The notes under the pieces were generated by a model. It made no database searches, was not told where the DNA came from, and was given only the letters and a program-made list of their open reading frames with translations. 64,000 nt of DNA from Escherichia coli (GTDB taxonomy: Bacteria > Pseudomonadota > Gammaproteobacteria > Enterobacterales > Enterobacteriaceae). The stretch lies in assembly GCF_003991155.1 (NCBI RefSeq), contig NZ_CP031293.1, one strand, 5' to 3'. Shown here one piece after another: positions 1 through 17,341 of this stretch. Each line of letters starts with the position of its first letter. Position 1 is the first letter of the stretch. The position numbers and the translations under genes were made by a program.

Positions 1-414
1 TCGTCTTTTGGGATCAATGTCGTGATAAACGAGCGTACGATTTTTGAGCTTGACGCAGTGGCTGAGCTGGCGCAACAGTTTGGTGCTAGTGAATTGCTGT
101 TGTTGCCTCAGCAAGCAACTAATGCAGTCGCAAGTATGGACGAATTGGTCGGCCGAGAGCTTCAAAACTGGGTCTCTAGCTATAGAGGAAAGGTTCGACT
201 TGCAGTAAGTGAGGTGGGAGCGTCAGGGCTCCCCATATGTGACCCTCTTCCTAATGAAACAGGCCTTCAAGCCTACGCGCATATAGACGCTTCCGGGATA
301 TTGCGCACGAGTTCTTATTCAACCACAGGTATGGATATTGAAGAAACTGGTGTTATGTCCGCGCTTAAACGGCTTAGAAATACCTTAGAGATTAAACAAG
401 GGACACAATCATGA
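1..414 (+). CDS. hypothetical protein, 5'-partial (reading frame open to window edge)
   Basis: Frame is open from nt 1 (no upstream in-frame stop); stop overlaps the next start as ATGA at 411-414. Confidence 0.35.
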   Translation, partial: SSFGINVVINERTIFELDAVAELAQQFGASELLLLPQQATNAVASMDELVGRELQNWVSSYRGKVRLAVSEVGASGLPICDPLPNETGLQAYAHIDASGILRTSSYSTTGMDIEETGVMSALKRLRNTLEIKQGTQS

Positions 415-832: not shown

Positions 833-3800
833 ATGCCTGAAGTAAATTGGAAAGTATTCAACGAACTGCCCGGTGCAGCAGATGTGAACTTCGAAAACCT
901 TTGCCGCGCTCTGGTACGCCGACACTATGGTCGTTTCGGTCGCTTTAAGCAACTCGCAAATCAGCCTGGGGTGGAGTTTCACCTCGAGCTGACGGAGCCT
1001 TGTGATCTCGGTGCGCCACCAGGTTGGATTGGTTGGCAATGCAAGTGGTATGAACTGGTGAATGGACAAGATTTGGGAGCCTCCCGCCGCAACAAGATCA
1101 TCGAAGGTATCGAAAAGACGCGTAAGCATGTCCCTGGAGTGACCAATTGGAAGCTTTGGACTCATCACACGTTAACAAAAGGTGATCAAGAGTGGTTTTT
1201 CGCGCTAGAGCAAGACCGCTTCCCAGAATTGAAGTTAGAACTGCTCACAGCTACGGATATCGAAGATCTTTTGGTCGGACCGGGAGCGCTTTTACGAGAA
1301 ACCTACTTTGGTGAACTGGTTCTAACTCCAGAGCTAATTGCTGAGCAGTATAAGCTTGCAGTGGCCCCATTTAAGAACCGCTACCAGCCAGATGTTCATG
1401 TAGCGGTGGGGGCTGAGGAGAATATATTCAGGCATCTGTGCAGCCAAAACGCATGGGAATCTCTGGAAGAACTCTCAAACGCTTTAAAAAAGAATCATAC
1501 GAGCATTGCTTCGGTTACTGAGCAACTCAAAACTGAGCTCAGGGCTGAAGTTGAATTACTCCTGGCCCGGGTTATTGGGTTGACTGAGTTTATTGATGGC
1601 TTACACGCGGCGCTCGGCAAAGGTGACTTTAACTCTGTATATCAAGCGTTGGTTTCAAATCCGCGTCAGCCGGTACGTTATGACAGGCTACTTTCGAAAT
1701 TGCGTGGAGCGCGCTTTGACGGGGCTCCGTTAACCGCTAATTTGGTTGCAGATATCCACGCGGTTTCGTCAGTTCTCCGCAGTCTGGAGCAATCGATTAG
1801 TGCTCGGGCGGTTGCTGTTCTTGCGGCGGCGGGGGAAGGTAAGTCTGAACTTGCAGTCAAGGTAACACAGCCAGAAGGGGCGTTCCTAGGGGGAATCCTC
1901 CTATTAGGCAAGAATCTTCATTCAGGCCAGGGGCTTGATGATCTCGTATCTGCCTTCAAGATTTCTGGGAGACCAGCAGAAAGTTTTGACCGCCTGATTG
2001 AGGCCGTAGATGCGGCAGGCCAGCGTGCAGGTAAACGCATACCTATTGTTATTGACGGTCTGAATGAGGCGGAAGATCCGAGAAATTGGAAGGATGAATT
2101 ATCCCGAGTGGATGAGCTTCTAAAGAATTTTCCTTATGTCTTGTTAGTTGTCACTCTTCGCAATGAATTCGCCCAGATGTGTCTGCCTGAGGGGTTTCCC
2201 CAAGTTGAACATAATGGGTTTCAGGAAGATCCGAAGACAGCATTTGACAAGTATTTTGAGTACTACAAGATCGATGCTACTGATGCGGATCTACCAGTCG
2301 AACTCTTGCAGCACCCCTTAACACTGAGAATTTTTTGCGAAGTAGCAAATTCTCCTCGTCAGCATATTGTCGGAGTGGAAGCATTGCCCCGTTCGCTTGC
2401 AAGCCTGTTCGAAGCTCACTTTAACAAGGTTGCAGCACGAGTCGCTGAGCTTTCACCGACGATGCATCGCATTTATCAAGATGACGTTCAGGATGCACTA
2501 CTAACGATCGCGGGTCTTCTTTGGGATAACAATGCGAGAAGTGTGGATTTTCAGGCTACACGGATGGCAGTTCGGGATATGGGGTGGGACGACAGTATTA
2601 TTCGTGCACTGGAGTCTGAAGGCATTCTCGTTCGGACTATTTCTCCAGAAGGTAGGCAAGGAGTTGCGTTTGCATACGACCTAATGGCCGGACATATGAT
2701 GGCGCGCAACCTGCTTATGAAGCCTGAACTGGTGCAATGGCTACAAAGCGATGAAGGGAACGCAAAATTTAAATCTCATGGACCTGATTCGCATACCTTC
2801 GCTTATGACGTATTACGGGCTCTGGTTGATCTGTATCCGCAACACTCTGGTAGGCGGCAGCTTTGGCAAGACTTGTCGGATGATATACTCGTTATGAACG
2901 CTCTGCTATTGACGACGCAATCGGATCCAAGATATATCGGGCGGGCTACTGTTGAACGATTTGCTCAAGCTATGCAGGAGTCGAAGCGGTTTGCACAACT
3001 TGCCTTCGAGAGACTACGGAGCACTAGGGCTGCGCTGGCACATCCGTTTGATATGAGCTTTTTGCATGATGTGCTAATGGCTATGTCCAACACTCAGCGC
3101 GATCTTTTTTGGTCAGAGTGGATTCGTCAGAAATCTGAACAAGTTAAAGACGACTTAAAATTCTTGTCGACGAGATGGAAATCGGGTCATCTGGATGAGC
3201 GTGAACTTCGAAGAGTTCGCTGGGTAATGTGGACACTGACGACGACATCCAGAGCTTTGCGGGATATGGCTACCAAAGCCCTGTATGAATTTGCCATCAG
3301 GCGGCCAGAAGAGTTTTTCCGGTTAGCGACGGAGACAATTGTAGTTTCAGACCCATATGTCCCCGAGCGAGTGTTCGCCGCAGCCTACGGTGCAGTCCTG
3401 ACCACTTGGTCGGATATCGATGCGGTAGAGTTACATGATGCGTTGCCACGGTTCGCTCGTGAGATTTACCAAACCATGTTTGCACCTGGCGCTACAGCCC
3501 CTACCTGGCATGCATTACATCAGCAGTACTGTTTGGGAATCATTGCCATTGCGAGGATGGTCGATCCAAATTGTTTTTCAGAGGACGAAGCTGTTTATCT
3601 TCTTCCGCCATTTAGCCATCTGCCTAACGTATTTGAAAGCATTCAACCGTACGATCCAGAGATGATTGGGCGAGCGGAGAGCGCAGCGATTCAAATGGAC
3701 TTTGGTAACTATACGATTGGTGGACTTATTCCAGACAGAGCGAACTACGATGACAGTAATCCGGAGTACCAACAGGTGTTGCAGGCCATTGTTTCTCGAA

Positions 3801-4891
3801 TGCTGATGCTTGGTTATGACCCTGAGCAGTTTGAAGCTGTTGATCGGCAAATGTACTCCGGTTCTCGTATGGGAGATGACAAGCACAAAATCGATCGATA
3901 TGGCAAAAAGTACGGCTGGATAGCTTACTTCGAGATGTGGGGGATACGATACGCGCAGGGCCTCCTTTCCGAAGAACGCAGTGCTCGCCCATCAGATGCT
4001 GATATCGATCCAACGTTTCCGCAAAAAGTAGAGAGTATTAGTTTGTCACTCCCAGTCTTATTTAACGATCCGTCTGTGGATGATGGTGACTGGATCGTGG
4101 GAGGCCCGCTACCTGACTACCGTAGCATCCTTGAGATTACGGAGGTTGATGGTCTGACGGGGCCATGGATCCTACTTGACGGTTTTGTTGAGCAAAATGC
4201 TACCTCGGATGACCGACAGATTTTCACTTTCCTGCGAGGAGTATTCGTAGATAGCCAAGAAGTTGACAATCTATGTAGGTTGTTCATTGATCTTGAATAT
4301 CCTGGCAATAGCGCCATCCCTGATGCTCCTGGCTACTATTACACCTATGCGGGTGAGATGCCTTTCCCGACTATTCCGGGGCTGCTAGTCGCTAATGAAC
4401 AAGAGGATGATAGCGATGAAAATTTGGTGTTCGCAGAAAGATGGTCAGGCAATGGCGTTGCGGTAGATATCACAGTGCAGGACTACAACTGGGAGAGCTA
4501 CCATAGCGTGGAGAACCAAAGCAGCGGTGCGAGCCTGCCCTCAAAGCAACTTTGTGAGGCTTTGAATCTCAGATACTGTGCAAACAAATGGGATTTGCAT
4601 GATGCTGCAGGTGTAGCGTCACTTTACCGCAAAATTGACGAAAATGGTTCGGACGTCAGTGGCTCTGTCAGCTATCTACGTCGTGATCTACTTGACCGCT
4701 ATTTGATGCAATCCGGTAAGGTATTGGTATGGCTTATGTGGGGAGAGCGTGGTTTTCATTACCGGTCCAACAAGACACGCAATTTGCACAGGTATTACGT
4801 GAATCACCAACATATTCACAAGCGTATTCATATCCATCAGATAGCTTCGAGTACTAGTAACCCAAATATTGCGGATGGAGTCGCTATATGA
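833..4891 (+). CDS. STAND-class P-loop NTPase, Avs/NLR-like, with N-terminal Mrr-like (PD-(D/E)xK, QxK variant) nuclease-type domain
   Basis: Walker A-like AAAGEGKSELA and Walker B-like IPIVIDGLNEAED (the hhhhDGLNE form typical of NACHT/STAND NTPases); N-terminal NFENLCRALV...GWQCKWY resembles the Mrr catalytic core; long C-terminal region. ORF track starts at TTG 815; first ATG is 833. Confidence 0.55.
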   Translation: MPEVNWKVFNELPGAADVNFENLCRALVRRHYGRFGRFKQLANQPGVEFHLELTEPCDLGAPPGWIGWQCKWYELVNGQDLGASRRNKIIEGIEKTRKHVPGVTNWKLWTHHTLTKGDQEWFFALEQDRFPELKLELLTATDIEDLLVGPGALLRETYFGELVLTPELIAEQYKLAVAPFKNRYQPDVHVAVGAEENIFRHLCSQNAWESLEELSNALKKNHTSIASVTEQLKTELRAEVELLLARVIGLTEFIDGLHAALGKGDFNSVYQALVSNPRQPVRYDRLLSKLRGARFDGAPLTANLVADIHAVSSVLRSLEQSISARAVAVLAAAGEGKSELAVKVTQPEGAFLGGILLLGKNLHSGQGLDDLVSAFKISGRPAESFDRLIEAVDAAGQRAGKRIPIVIDGLNEAEDPRNWKDELSRVDELLKNFPYVLLVVTLRNEFAQMCLPEGFPQVEHNGFQEDPKTAFDKYFEYYKIDATDADLPVELLQHPLTLRIFCEVANSPRQHIVGVEALPRSLASLFEAHFNKVAARVAELSPTMHRIYQDDVQDALLTIAGLLWDNNARSVDFQATRMAVRDMGWDDSIIRALESEGILVRTISPEGRQGVAFAYDLMAGHMMARNLLMKPELVQWLQSDEGNAKFKSHGPDSHTFAYDVLRALVDLYPQHSGRRQLWQDLSDDILVMNALLLTTQSDPRYIGRATVERFAQAMQESKRFAQLAFERLRSTRAALAHPFDMSFLHDVLMAMSNTQRDLFWSEWIRQKSEQVKDDLKFLSTRWKSGHLDERELRRVRWVMWTLTTTSRALRDMATKALYEFAIRRPEEFFRLATETIVVSDPYVPERVFAAAYGAVLTTWSDIDAVELHDALPRFAREIYQTMFAPGATAPTWHALHQQYCLGIIAIARMVDPNCFSEDEAVYLLPPFSHLPNVFESIQPYDPEMIGRAESAAIQMDFGNYTIGGLIPDRANYDDSNPEYQQVLQAIVSRMLMLGYDPEQFEAVDRQMYSGSRMGDDKHKIDRYGKKYGWIAYFEMWGIRYAQGLLSEERSARPSDADIDPTFPQKVESISLSLPVLFNDPSVDDGDWIVGGPLPDYRSILEITEVDGLTGPWILLDGFVEQNATSDDRQIFTFLRGVFVDSQEVDNLCRLFIDLEYPGNSAIPDAPGYYYTYAGEMPFPTIPGLLVANEQEDDSDENLVFAERWSGNGVAVDITVQDYNWESYHSVENQSSGASLPSKQLCEALNLRYCANKWDLHDAAGVASLYRKIDENGSDVSGSVSYLRRDLLDRYLMQSGKVLVWLMWGERGFHYRSNKTRNLHRYYVNHQHIHKRIHIHQIASSTSNPNIADGVAI

Positions 4892-5049
4892 GTTACGACT
4901 TCAGAAATCTTTCATCCGCAAACTTTGAGGATCTTGTGCGGGATCTTATCGAAAAAGAAGAAGGGTTCGCTTCGAAGCATTCTCTGTGGGGGCTGATAAT
5001 GATATTGATGGCCGACACGCACATGCTGGAGGGAATGTCAGTTTATAGG
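4888..5049 (+). pseudogene. 53-codon remnant beginning a Mrr-like nuclease domain, ATGA-coupled to the STAND gene stop
   Basis: ATG 4888 overlaps the STAND stop (4889-4891); MSYDFRNLSSANFEDLVRDLIEKEEGF parallels the N-terminal motif of the upstream STAND protein, then terminates early; followed by about 1.2 kb AT-rich ORF-free DNA. Confidence 0.3.
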
Positions 5050-6264
5050 TAAAACCTTATGAAGGGGCGTCGTTTAGTATACTGATGGCTATTATGAAGT
5101 GTGAGTGGTTGTCTAAAGATAAGCTAGCCCTCACACGCTGTATCAAGCGACCTCTTGTTAGCTTACTCCAGCTAGCAAGAGTAAACTTTCCCCACTCATA
5201 GGGCTATGTTTGAAGTCCGAGTCGGAAATTGGGGGGCAGAAGACATAAAAGGTCTCCTTAAGAAGTCTTCTTGTCTGTACAAAAACTCTTATTTTGACAA
5301 AGAGCATTGTAGTTATTAACAGGCTGATTAATAAATTTAAAAATAAGTCGTCAGGAACACCAGATTAGCTACCCAAATTCTCATGCCGTGGAAGCGGAAG
5401 AAAAATACTCCCCTGAATATCTTCATATCGGATATACATAATAAGCTTGAGGTTGTATATTTGAAGAATTGAGTAGCCAGAGCCTTGTTGACATAAAGCG
5501 ACACGAACAACATGTTACTTAAAATATCACGAGTATATATTCAGACTTGTTTATGTTGCGACATGGATTCTACAGGCAGCTGGCTGAAACAGTGAGTCAG
5601 AAAAATTTACAGGAGCGCCATAGTCATTAATGGATATCCGTAATATGCTGATGCAAAAGGGTAAGGAGTTTGCCGGTAATCTGCGGTGTTAGACGACAAT
5701 TACAAAACGACCTTAGGCGTCAATTACCGCTGAAAAAAGTGACAGATCACTTTCTATAAAATGCTGCCGTATGACCGACAGATTTATTCCGCTTTATAGC
5801 CATGACTGTTCGGTGCTCACTTCGCTGCGCTCCGCCTCAGTCCTGCCTAAAAAGCGTTGCAGGTTAGTTTGTATCGGCCTAATGAAAGGCTGTTTTAGCG
5901 AAGCGTAAATGTGACATCTTATCTGGTCTAATCTCTTTGCGATAATTGACGCAAAAGCATGGGCTGTAATTGTCACGCAATACTGCGGCAAGTCTCATGA
6001 TGATGCCTCTGACAGGGATCTCCGTAGCCATTAACTGGTCGATTGGTAAGCTAAAACAAAAAAATTGAATTTGTCAAGACAGCCATAATGACTACCATTT
6101 TCGTCTCTGCTTTTCCATCCTGAAATTAATGGCTATCATATTCGCAATAGACAACATCATCTTACTTGCACTCAACTATAACTAATGCTGAGTGCAAGAA
6201 ACGGGGATTATATCCCCTATCAAGGACCTGTTGAAATATTAGTCTGGAATTTCGAGGCTGTAAT

Positions 6265-6789
6265 TTAAATTGCTCCATTTGCCTTAGCATCAAGAATGAA
6301 TTTTTCATACTCGCGTTCTGCAACAACAACAGGGACTGTTTTGCGATTATATAATTGCATTAATAACAATGTACGATGCCTTCCATCAGAAACACCAAAT
6401 TCACTGTTAGATGCCTCTGGATATTCAACATACCCTTTTGATATATATTTTTTGATTTTATGCCATCTACGCGGATCAATGCAGAATGCTCCATCTCCTA
6501 ATTTTTTAAGAAAGGCTAGCCCATCGACATATACAATCCTGGTAGGACAATGCCGATAGCGTACAGGAAGGGTAAAGATAATATTTTCAAAAACAGGGAA
6601 AGTAAGACCTGAATCATCTTTAGGTATTGACTCAAAGGAATCAAAAGGATATTTTGTCATGTAATCATTTAGTTTTTCAATATCCATATTGGAAAACCAC
6701 GATACTTCCGGGAGAAATTTTTTATCTCTTTCTCTAATTTCTTTGATCGAATCTCCAAATATATCATCTAACCTCCACCCCTCTTTCAT
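6265..6789 (-). CDS. hypothetical protein with C-terminal ParB/Srx-like DGRHR motif
   Basis: 174 aa; GVSDGRHRTLLLMQL near the C-terminus resembles the DGxHR signature of ParB/sulfiredoxin-fold nuclease domains; AT-rich gene downstream of an Rhs immunity gene. Confidence 0.45.
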   Translation of the reverse strand: MKEGWRLDDIFGDSIKEIRERDKKFLPEVSWFSNMDIEKLNDYMTKYPFDSFESIPKDDSGLTFPVFENIIFTLPVRYRHCPTRIVYVDGLAFLKKLGDGAFCIDPRRWHKIKKYISKGYVEYPEASNSEFGVSDGRHRTLLLMQLYNRKTVPVVVAEREYEKFILDAKANGAI

Positions 6790-7349: not shown

Positions 7350-8737
7350 GAATCACATCCTTTAATAAAACTCATTATTCGTGACCAAAAAGAGTCTTTT
7401 TTGTATATAGGGTTTTTATCGTTTAATGGTAAAGGATCGTCTGTTGGTATAACGGCTGTATTTCTTGGCCCAACATTTGTTTTAGTAAGTGAATCTTTGG
7501 AAGCATCAAACTCTACATAAGAACCATTCTTCCATGCCCCTGTTTCTGCACCTGCCGTTTTAGGATCTCCAAATGGCTCCACCTCAACGTGTACACCAAC
7601 AGGATTGCCTCTGGCAGGGTTGATAGACCCATCCTTGCTAATTCCATCAATACCCTCTGTTGAAGTATGATGTCTAACTCTAACAGTATCGTCACCAGTT
7701 AACCCTAACGGATCAATAATTTTTAGCGGATTAAATACATATCCATACAGGCAATCCCCACCTCTCAGCCCCATCGGATCAGCACACAGATACTGCCCCG
7801 TATCGCAATCATAATACCTGAATCGGTTATAGTACAGGCCTGACTCAACATCCTCGTACTGCCCCGGAAAACGTAACCGGCATGTGGGCGCATCTTCTTT
7901 ACTGATGCCTTCCTCACGCCCCCAGAGCTGCTGCTTGCCTTTCCAGACTATCAGACCCTCTTCGGTCAGCAGTTCTTGTACGCGGCCAGTTGTGTCTGTT
8001 ACCGCATAATGCAGTTGCCCCTTTTCATAACGCGCAAACGGCGTGAAATCTCCCGGCTCGTATATCCAGCGGATGGCGTTTTCATCTTCCGGTTTGCCGT
8101 CAGCGCCAACCGGAATTTCCGCCGTCAACTGGTCGCCGTTCCAGTGAAAATCCATGCCGCGTTTGTCGCGGCTGGTACAGCGCTTGCTGATGCGCCTGCC
8201 GAACGGGTCATACTTATATTCCCAGCGTTCGCCCTCCGGTGTTTCCAGTCCGGTCAACTGGCTGCGTGCATCCCATTTATAACGCCATTCCAGTGGGCGA
8301 TAACCCCCTTTATCCACCAGTTTCTGTACCAGCCTGCCGTTAACATCATATTTCCAGGTGATGTTGTGCGCATTCACCACCCGGACAAATCTCCCGTCTT
8401 CCCCTTTTCCGGTGTCCGGGTTGATGCGATGCGTCGAGTGCCGCCAGCCTTCATGTTCCCGCGATACCACACGACCATGCTGCTGTTGCTGGTGCGTCTC
8501 GCTTTCCAGTACGTTATTCACCCTGATCTGGCGACGGGTAATGTTCAGGTTTTTATCGTAAGTGAACAGCTCCTCGCACAGCGGAAACTGGCTGGAATCA
8601 CCCGTCCAGGTGGCGTGGCTTATCTGGTCGTTTGCCGTGATGGTGTTGAACATGGAGCCGCGCAGCGAGTCGGCGATTGCGGTGAGGTTATACGCTTTGT
8701 CGTAGCTTCGCTGCGTCGGGAGGTTTCCATGCCGCAC
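7346..8737 (-). CDS. orphan Rhs C-terminal fragment: end of YD-repeat core plus variable C-terminal toxin domain
   Basis: YD-repeat-like segments (YKYDPFGRR, WIYEPGDFTP) and the core-terminating motif YYNRFRYYDCDTGQYLCADPMGL...DPLGL, followed by a ~115-aa unrelated C-terminal domain; GC-rich core against AT-rich tip. No full-length Rhs N-terminus upstream. Confidence 0.75.
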   Translation of the reverse strand: MRHGNLPTQRSYDKAYNLTAIADSLRGSMFNTITANDQISHATWTGDSSQFPLCEELFTYDKNLNITRRQIRVNNVLESETHQQQQHGRVVSREHEGWRHSTHRINPDTGKGEDGRFVRVVNAHNITWKYDVNGRLVQKLVDKGGYRPLEWRYKWDARSQLTGLETPEGERWEYKYDPFGRRISKRCTSRDKRGMDFHWNGDQLTAEIPVGADGKPEDENAIRWIYEPGDFTPFARYEKGQLHYAVTDTTGRVQELLTEEGLIVWKGKQQLWGREEGISKEDAPTCRLRFPGQYEDVESGLYYNRFRYYDCDTGQYLCADPMGLRGGDCLYGYVFNPLKIIDPLGLTGDDTVRVRHHTSTEGIDGISKDGSINPARGNPVGVHVEVEPFGDPKTAGAETGAWKNGSYVEFDASKDSLTKTNVGPRNTAVIPTDDPLPLNDKNPIYKKDSFWSRIMSFIKGCDS

Positions 8738-9763: not shown

Positions 9764-11013
<1,250 letters not shown>

Positions 11014-17265: not shown

Positions 17266-17341
17266 TGGCTCCTCTGACTGGACTCGAACCAGTGACATAC
17301 GGATTAACAGTCCGCCGTTCTACCGACTGAACTACAGAGGA
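17266..17341 (-). tRNA. tRNA-Asn (GUU)
   Basis: 76-nt reverse complement of TCCTCTGTAGTTCAGTCGGTAGAACGGCGGACTGTTAATCCG...GGAGCCA; anticodon loop CUGUUAA. Confidence 0.95.

Follow-up and report, generated by a model that had tools for sequence, protein, structure and literature searches.

The closest described system is the KpAvs2 operon, which consists of three genes, Avap1 (radical SAM), Avap2 (DUF6375) and Avs2; a fourth gene is not required for defense (Bechon et al., Nat Commun 2024, PMC11564622). Phage resistance was shown for the Klebsiella pneumoniae version, in whose 1352-aa KpAvs2 protein residues K71 and K337 were mutated (PMC11564622).

The locus analyzed here lies in a 64-kb window, i.e., the whole stretch of Escherichia coli DNA studied, and consists of a KpAvs2-type operon, a 54-codon ORF coupled to its last gene, and an AT-rich tract. 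The ORF is very probably a 5′ stump left by the dead fourth gene of an anti-phage cassette (Avap1, Avap2, Avs2, and an Mrr/nSTAND3 gene), and the tract is very probably the interior of a composite asnW island.

The KpAvs2-type operon and its fourth gene

The window opens with the 3′ part of an Avap1-like radical-SAM gene (1–414, plus strand), which runs off the window start. It is annotated as radical SAM by RefSeq in identical genomes, and its orthologue in E. coli MLI107 gives a pVip-like match in PADLOC. It is followed on the same strand by an Avap2-like DUF6375 gene (411–818; Pfam PF19902, E 8.8e-60) and by an intact Avs2 STAND gene of the KpAvs2 type (833–4891, 1352 aa; PADLOC Avs2, E 7.7e-116), the N-terminus of which is also matched by the PADLOC Avs4 model. 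The gene order of radical SAM, DUF6375, and Avs2, the overlapping genes, the length of 1352 aa, and both mutated residues, K71 within WQCKW and the Walker-A K337, were all found. Judged by sequence, the three intact genes thus match the published KpAvs2 operon. This identity was missed by the first-pass annotation, as were the tRNA-Asn island-junction relics and the structured hairpin described below.

A fourth ATGA-coupled Mrr/nSTAND3 gene, or its wreck, was present in every cassette examined (25 E. coli genomes, several Klebsiella, and one Kosakonia). Comparison with genomes carrying an intact tandem gene, as the first-pass annotation had proposed, identified it in E. coli MLI107, Klebsiella aerogenes, and Kosakonia, where a gene encoding 762 aa follows radical-SAM/DUF6375/Avs2 with the same ATGA overlap. 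Its product contains an Mrr_cat domain (21.4 bits; cutoff 21) and an nSTAND3 domain (E 7.5e-49; residues 172–327, with the P-loop GPPGVGKT), and it matches the PADLOC candidate PDC-S73 over residues 1–706 (E 5e-146). It belongs to a family of Mrr/nSTAND3 proteins of about 761 aa, which is widespread in Proteobacteria. A PDB sequence search with the intact gene returned P-loop-level matches to Lon only, and experimental defense data for the Mrr_cat/nSTAND3 (PDC-S73) family were not found in the literature searched.

The cassette boundaries common across genera take in gene 4 and its terminator, and at the nucleotide level the cassette shares about 95% identity with its Klebsiella copies. A fourth coupled STAND gene goes unmentioned in the main text of the operon paper (PMC11564622). 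Possibly, the Mrr/nSTAND3 gene is not a single-gene system and is instead an obligate partner, coupled by ATGA, downstream of various large NTPase defense genes (KpAvs2, AAA_13, DEAD/ResIII). Disrupted forms of it also occur in Klebsiella, and its recurrent breakage (twice in E. coli and in several Klebsiella forms) raises the question of whether the gene is costly, redundant, or merely exposed at the cassette edge.

The remnant of the Mrr/nSTAND3 gene

The ORF behind Avs2 (4888–5052, plus strand) was counted as 53 codons in the first-pass annotation; it exists but has 54 codons, of which codons 1–26 retain the lost gene's ancestral frame and the remainder is a frameshifted tail. It is coupled to the STAND stop codon as described there, its ATG overlapping the TGA as ATGA, and its start, MSYDFRNLSSANFEDLVRDLI, does resemble the STAND start VNFENLCRALV. 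Direct similarity between the two N-termini is weak (BLASTP, 10/35 identities, E 0.2), and the likeness is that of two separate Mrr-type nuclease N-termini rather than the outcome of a duplication.

Homology to the intact gene extends past the ORF and defines a pseudogene remnant at 4888 to about 5268 (plus strand; blastn, tblastn, alignment, and codon analysis), which retains 127 of 762 codons. The intact 762-aa counterpart at the same position bears out the earlier view that this DNA belonged to a second, tandem defense gene with an Mrr-like start, of which the 5′ end survives in decayed form. Window positions 4503–5266 are 88% identical to the intact gene locus over 764 nt including flank (blastn), and the remnant matches the gene product at E 2e-16 (tblastn). 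Three 1-nt deletions (near 4966, 5142, and 5225) and two ancestral-frame TAG stops (at 5046 and 5159) leave no uninterrupted frame of ~761 codons. The nuclease motif D…(Q/E)xK is destroyed as well, with the QAK of the orthologue reading stop-V-K beyond the first frameshift. Gene homology ends near 5268, such that the first 378 nt are kept and the distal 84% of the gene is gone; residues beyond 127, including the nSTAND3 P-loop, had no match anywhere in the 64-kb window.

Codon analysis counted 39 nonsynonymous to 16 synonymous substitutions in the remnant, a near-neutral pattern. The remnant is 84% identical to the intact genes, which are 92–97% identical among themselves, and the excess divergence is restricted to it, as the adjoining 3′ end of Avs2 shows 91–96% identity. 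After frame correction, the nearest match among the 120 homologues listed has only 71% amino acid identity, so a closer allele, sought among them as the source of the divergence, does not account for it. A simple model of neutral decay since the split from MLI107 gives, as a rough estimate, about half the divergence seen in the remnant. Patches of 82–84% identity occur within Avs2 in the cassette comparison, and mosaic recombination in the cassette, rather than age alone, may have produced this excess. Across 4700–6400, 22 complete E. coli genomes show 100% identity and a 23rd shows at least 99%.

Island ends and a conserved hairpin in the ORF-free tract

The absence of any ORF longer than 65 codons, reported by the first-pass annotation, was reproduced: positions 4892–6264 (1373 nt) form the longest run in the window that lacks any ORF of at least 66 aa, the second-longest being 939 nt. 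The AT-richness reported with it is likewise present and moderate, with a GC content of 40.8% at 5053–6264 versus 48.7% for the window (8th percentile of sliding windows); the Rhs-immunity genes directly downstream go down to 26–35%. The tract is bounded by a convergent 174-aa gene (6265–6789, minus strand), which closes an Rhs orphan toxin/immunity array, with a ParB/Srx-like DGRHR motif read from its translation alone. Directly downstream of this gene, a terminator scan and the sequence place two terminator-like hairpins on the minus strand (6165–6174/6189–6198 and 6203–6217).

The tract has no detectable coding role. A six-frame Pfam scan of 5200–6270 with stops masked gave no matches, and tblastn with three P4-type integrases and the flanking genes of intact loci yielded noise only. 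The AT-rich DNA at 5376–5784, of unassigned origin, shows no detectable coding relic, and its small ORFs are never called as genes. In DNA searches against E. coli genomes, plasmids, and phages, only two short elements of the tract matched outside the 23 E. coli genomes carrying it whole, and ~550 nt (5376–5784 and 5861–6002) had no match.

Islands integrated at tRNA-Asn genes are known in E. coli, e.g., the HPI at asnT and the pks island at asnW. The tract holds two copies, B and C, of a ~95-nt element that combines a tRNA-Asn 3′ end with a conserved island end and starts with TGGCTCCTCTGACTGG, which is that 3′ end in reverse complement. Copy B (6003–6105, plus strand; nhmmer E 1.4e-25) consists of a decayed repeat of the tRNA 3′ end and ~80 nt of island end, and shows 83–86% identity to the copies next to yeeN, yeeJ, and cbl, both within this genome and across more than 300 E. 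coli genomes. Copy C (5286–5375, plus strand) is degenerate and abuts the deletion breakpoint; nhmmer detected it at 5300–5375 (22.9 bits, E 1.9e-6), a score reached by none of 2000 dinucleotide shuffles (maximum 9.8 bits), and its extension to 5286 was read by eye. The profile was built without either copy and also aligns native flank adjoining real tRNAs.

Where K-12 has asnW, asnT, and asnU, copies of the element are found. The distance from yeeN to copy A is about 455 nt, versus 453 nt between yeeN and asnW in K-12, and asnW itself is displaced to 17266–17341 of the window. The repeat matches the tRNA 3′ end at 16 of 17 positions in copy A, the yeeJ copy, and the cbl copy, and at 12 of 17 in copy B; in copy C it is decayed. 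A border at the native tRNA position with native flank outside holds for copy A and does not cover the internal copies B and C. Since the tract contains two island-end copies, we read it as junctions internal to a composite asnW island. Against this reading, no integrase relic was found between 5267 and 6002 (tblastn, Pfam), where one would be expected for a tandem island.

Between copies C and B lies a 76-nt hairpin (5785–5860), in which the apex, TGTTCGGTGCTCACTnnGnTGnGCTCCGCCTCA, is invariant and the lower stem covaries. About 40 IncF and other plasmids carry it, as do 11 GTDB loci and phage phiSG1, and it is conserved across E. coli, Salmonella, Klebsiella, Enterobacter, Citrobacter, Erwinia, Sodalis, and Tenebrionibacter. 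Among 15 copies compared, 92.7% of cells are paired versus 34–43% with the partners slid, compensatory changes affect 12–13 pairs (the observed value was reached by 0 of 500 shuffles), and the hairpin folds better than shuffles (z −2.4 to −3.6). No constant neighboring gene was found among the contexts compared, which include vapBC/IS110, an F-type tra operon, a P4-integrase island, a T6SS vgrG region, and a serine recombinase.

An Rfam scan of 4700–6500 at a permissive E-value gave chance matches only (E 0.6–0.8, far under the gathering scores); mir-622 was rejected as an identity, as its match merely mirrors the hairpin shape. A covariance model found no further copies over 409 kb of loci, an IMG/VR scan for the apex gave two matches only, and a literature search for the sequence gave none. 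The hairpin was also considered as a bridge RNA, part of the non-coding RNA of IS110, and this was rejected, as the apex is invariant without a nearby IS110 and the flanks are unrelated. To our knowledge, no ops/RfaH site, attC, oriT nick site, or primosome assembly site clearly fits it. Tentatively, the hairpin could be a new, uncatalogued structured element of enterobacterial mobile DNA, a folded RNA or ssDNA recognized at its apex, e.g., as a signal for priming, transfer, or recombination, or else as a preferred landing site of an IS110-family recombinase. Its conservation indicates that some of the tract, at least 76 nt, may be other than junk. A strongly covarying hairpin that lacks an Rfam family and is common to plasmids, integrative and conjugative elements, and islands is a cheap candidate for experiments.

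Alternative explanations and comparison with known systems

Could the 54-codon ORF be a genuine intact small gene, perhaps a translationally coupled KpAvs2 regulator or decoy that resembles Mrr N-termini? It still has its ATGA coupling to Avs2, and 393 contigs in the protein collection carry it as a called hypothetical protein. However, every member of its protein cluster is a 54-aa E. coli sequence, and conservation of the whole frame in diverged relatives was not found. The match in the ancestral frame is limited to codons 1–26, and homology to the longer gene is clear, running ~215 nt past the ORF stop with the frames shifted. APEC20/16 carries a separately decayed stub of gene 4, broken differently by other indels, and the published operon functions with three genes. 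A conserved intact small gene is thus extremely improbable and already largely refuted. A second alternative concerns how the gene was lost: an asn-tRNA island may have integrated site-specifically into a pseudo-att inside the gene, a later deletion taking the 3′ half, instead of a plain deletion. Copy C begins ~18 nt or less from the end of gene homology, and the intact gene reads TGGCCTCCTCCGGAAGT there, similar to the att core TGGCTCCTCTGACTGG at about 12–13 of 17 positions with one gap, by eye. This resemblance could be due to chance, copy C seems by eye to hold its own complete, though decayed, repeat instead of a hybrid core, and the 3′ half of the gene is absent from the whole window. 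Integration into a pseudo-att therefore appears improbable.

The conserved hairpin raises another possibility, namely that the tract was kept for a functional non-coding element, with the hairpin acting as a small RNA, as an ssDNA signal (a priming, transfer, or recombination site), or as an IS110-type target, and the rest being promoter or flank. The invariant 33-nt apex and compensatory stem pairs across genera, together with the folding, argue for this, and IS110-family transposase genes adjoin the hairpin in two independent contexts. On the other hand, homology among copies stops at the hairpin edges, with flanks that differ in every context, so the remaining ~1.1 kb of the tract lies outside the element. 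Neighbor genes and orientation are inconsistent, the counts of G-U and A-C favor neither strand, and no Rfam family, terminator tail, or convincing promoter was found. Retention of the tract for such an element is therefore rather unlikely.

Under the preferred reading of a broken fourth gene inside a composite island, we infer both the mechanism and the order of deletion and island stacking. A deletion would have removed the distal part of gene 4, its terminator, and whatever lay up to the next island junction, and the remnant would have drifted neutrally since then. Along the tract, the order is copy C at the breakpoint, ~410 nt of AT-rich DNA, the hairpin, copy B, and finally the region with the 3′ terminator of the Rhs-array gene. 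Translation of the stump may persist via the ATGA overlap, the expected product being only a 54-aa nonsense peptide, and 4888–5268 is better marked as a pseudogene than as a 54-aa hypothetical protein. As a whole, this is an ordinary case of genome erosion, in which the hairpin is the sole part worth following up. It documents erosion at the edge of a defense cassette and scars from islands stacking at a tRNA gene, and is of small importance in itself.

Compared with the KpAvs2 operon, the three genes in the window match in order and domains, but the published operon has three genes and the cassettes examined carry a fourth, which is dead in the window. As with islands at E. coli tRNA-Asn genes, a 16–17-nt direct repeat of the tRNA-Asn 3′ end marks the distal border, and islands are stacked at asn tRNA genes with the tRNA displaced; the window differs in its decayed internal junctions (B and C) and in a defense-cassette segment without an integrase. 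The intact orthologue resembles PDC-S73, i.e., nSTAND3 (PF20720) with an Mrr_cat N-terminus, of which the window keeps 127 broken codons without the P-loop and the C-terminal domain. By domain matches alone, the lost gene combined an Mrr-type nuclease N-terminus on a STAND NTPase, as in Avs4, with the nSTAND3 NTPase module of Avs5. It differs from Avs4, whose models span about 1570 positions, in its length of 762 aa, and from Avs5 in having Mrr where Avs5 has a SIR2 effector.

A broken fourth gene behind the STAND gene

The STAND gene (833-4891, + strand) is followed by an ORF at 4888-5052, the ATG of which overlaps the STAND stop codon as ATGA. The first-pass annotation had described this coupling, with one codon too few (53, against 54 counted), and had read the ORF, which appears in protein records solely as a hypothetical protein of E. 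coli, as the decayed 5' end of a tandem defense gene. This interpretation was right: in E. coli MLI107 an intact 762-aa gene occupies the same place behind the same cassette, with an identical ATGA overlap, and among the relatives compared the cassette is likewise followed by the ATGA-overlapped gene in Klebsiella aerogenes and Kosakonia radicincitans. The resemblance between the N-termini of the ORF and the STAND protein, to which attention had been drawn, is present but weak (BLASTP E 0.2).

At its N-terminus the intact protein carries an Mrr_cat domain (21.4 bits, cutoff 21); an nSTAND3 NTPase domain is also present (E 7.5e-49), and residues 1-706 match the PADLOC candidate PDC-S73 (E 5e-146). 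The family is widespread, with a length of about 761 aa. Across genera, the shared cassette begins about 80 nt 5' of the radical-SAM gene and ends 30-50 nt beyond the stop of the Mrr/nSTAND3 gene, limits which take in the terminator hairpin after it. As these boundaries span both the gene and its terminator, the four-gene unit is the ancestral form, and the lineage of the window has lost 84% of the fourth gene.

What remains spans 127 codons in the ancestral frame; window positions 4503-5266 are 88% identical in nucleotides to MLI107, and homology ends near 5268. Single nucleotides are deleted near 4966, 5142, and 5225, and TAG stops interrupt the ancestral frame at 5046 and 5159, one of them in place of the Q in the QxK nuclease motif. 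Codon differences (39 nonsynonymous, 16 synonymous) are near the neutral expectation. Identity to the intact genes is 84%, compared with 92-97% among the intact genes themselves, and the adjoining 3' end of the STAND gene shows 91-96%. Of the 120 homologues listed, none is nearer to the remnant than 71% amino acid identity.

Where homology ends, the intact MLI107 gene (L001, about 8550-8567, opposite window 5251-5267) reads TGGCCTCCTCCGGAAGT, which resembles the tRNA-Asn att core TGGCTCCTCTGACTGG at about 12-13 of 17 positions with one gap. The likeness could be due to chance, or the deletion could have made use of a secondary att site here.

Distribution, possible recurrent loss, and upstream genes

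The region 4700-6400 of this E. coli chromosome is present at 100% identity in 22 complete genomes and at ≥99% in a 23rd, the set including CREC-544 and WW2, and matches partially (88%) in two further genomes, MLI107 and APEC20/16. APEC20/16 holds a different wreck of the gene start, which is shorter and has a 13-nt deletion. Shortened forms of 497-704 aa, including 605, 613, 686, and 704 aa, were seen in Klebsiella (loci L028-L031; proteins P0003, P0004, P0030, P0048, and P0095), and the two that were checked (605 and 704 aa) are located behind a KpAvs2 cassette. One Klebsiella locus (L031) retains the 3' end of the gene and the terminator, thus the shortening there is internal. Together, the Klebsiella forms and the two E. 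coli wrecks suggest recurrent inactivation of this gene.

The Mrr/nSTAND3 gene (L012-L015, L036-L038) always starts at an ATGA, overlapped by the end of upstream NTPase genes that are unrelated to one another: KpAvs2, a 750-aa AAA_13 gene (L036), or a 1202-aa DEAD/ResIII gene (L038). The modules meet precisely at the start codon, and even a seemingly solitary Pseudomonas copy (L037) retains, as a relic, six codons of the AAA_13 gene tail. The Mrr/nSTAND3 gene may be a habitual downstream partner and not a single-gene system.

Probable island scars and a conserved hairpin in the ORF-poor tract

As previously noted, 4892-6264 lacks any ORF of 66 aa or more; at 1373 nt it is the longest such stretch in the window (runner-up, 939 nt). 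It is AT-rich as had been stated, though only moderately so (GC 40.8% vs 48.7% in the window, 8th percentile of sliding windows). DNA searches of 5240-6290 found just two short conserved pieces.

One of these, at 6006-6101, recurs in over 300 E. coli genomes and belongs to an element of about 95 nt. The element opens with TGGCTCCTCTGACTGG, which is the 16-nt tRNA-Asn 3' end in reverse complement; a conserved island end of about 80 nt comes next. WW2, the genome type of the window, has four copies, three of them next to yeeN, yeeJ, and cbl and the fourth in the window (6003-6105); copies in comparison loci lie at L002 2537-2631, L016 5105-5199 and 18358-18452, and L004/L005 5001-5095. In K-12, asnW, asnT, and asnU occupy the yeeN, yeeJ, and cbl positions, which makes the element the distal border of islands that inserted at asn tRNA genes. 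From yeeN to the copy beside it the distance is about 455 nt, against 453 nt from yeeN to the asnW 3' end in K-12, and the real asnW of the window is at 17266-17341. Everything between yeeN and asnW forms a composite island. A profile made from five other copies, with both window copies left out, recovered 6003-6105 (E 1.4e-25) and a degenerate copy (5286-5375; matched at 5300-5375, E 1.9e-6, a score reached by 0 of 2000 dinucleotide shuffles) right behind the gene breakpoint.

An anticodon-loop-like AGCCAGTTAATGGCT lies on the reverse strand of the part of about 80 nt, a hint that this part might be a degenerate tRNA-derived sequence.

Integrase relics or any protein-family signal were not found in the tract, and its final 160 nt hold terminator-like hairpins serving the convergent 174-aa gene. 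In our reading, scars of stacked island junctions make up the tract, together with about 550 nt of AT-rich DNA that match nothing, in an order of events that we infer.

The second conserved piece is a 76-nt hairpin (5785-5860) found in at least eight genera: on about 40 plasmids, chiefly conjugative IncF types from Klebsiella and Salmonella, in Sodalis phage phiSG1, and at 11 loci of GTDB species representatives (Citrobacter, Enterobacter, Erwinia with three copies, Sodalis, and Tenebrionibacter). Copies (L006-L009, L017-L027, and L032-L034) share only the hairpin itself, while flanks vary with context: vapBC/IS110, an F-type tra operon, a P4-integrase island, the neighbourhood of a T6SS region, or a serine recombinase. 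Covariation marks the lower stem, and the 33-nt apex does not vary. Across 15 copies, 92.7% of cells are paired, compared with 34-43% with slid partners; 12-13 pairs show compensatory changes, and none of 500 shuffles attained the observed value. No Rfam family matched, and the sequence was not found in the literature searched. The hairpin is the sole part worth follow-up.

The 174-aa gene (6265-6789, - strand) encodes a ParB/Srx-like DGRHR motif and ends an Rhs orphan toxin/immunity array. It has no Pfam or PADLOC match; several E. coli plasmids carry genes annotated "hypothetical protein" that share about 66% identity with it over some 350 nt. An IS3-family transposase (WP_152895938.1) is present in two copies: the first interrupts an Rhs core adjoining DUF2169 (window, about 9835-11012), and the second, some 27 kb distant, is a neighbour of an Rhs core, PAAR, and yeeJ (L016 15594-16771). 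Together with the displaced asn tRNA gene order, they suggest an IS- or tRNA-mediated rearrangement of a T6SS Rhs locus.

The intact KpAvs2 operon

Within the C-terminal part of the STAND gene (3601-4200), patches fall to 82-84% identity to MLI107, and the K. aerogenes copy is 94% identical over 3601-4000 and then 84% over 4001-4200. The pattern suggests mosaic recombination within a region of Avs2 thought to sense phage proteins.

Overall, what adjoins the intact, known defence operon is ordinary: a pseudogene stump and island debris. A radical-SAM gene precedes a DUF6375 gene (Pfam, E 9e-60) and the STAND gene, whose product matches PADLOC Avs2 (E 8e-116) and has 1352 aa counted from the RefSeq start. 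These three genes are the KpAvs2 operon (Avap1, Avap2, Avs2) of Bechon et al. 2024, a unit which defends E. coli through abortive infection (PMC11564622). As in KpAvs2, the window Avs2 has K71 (in WQCKW) and the Walker-A K337, both of which were mutated by those authors.
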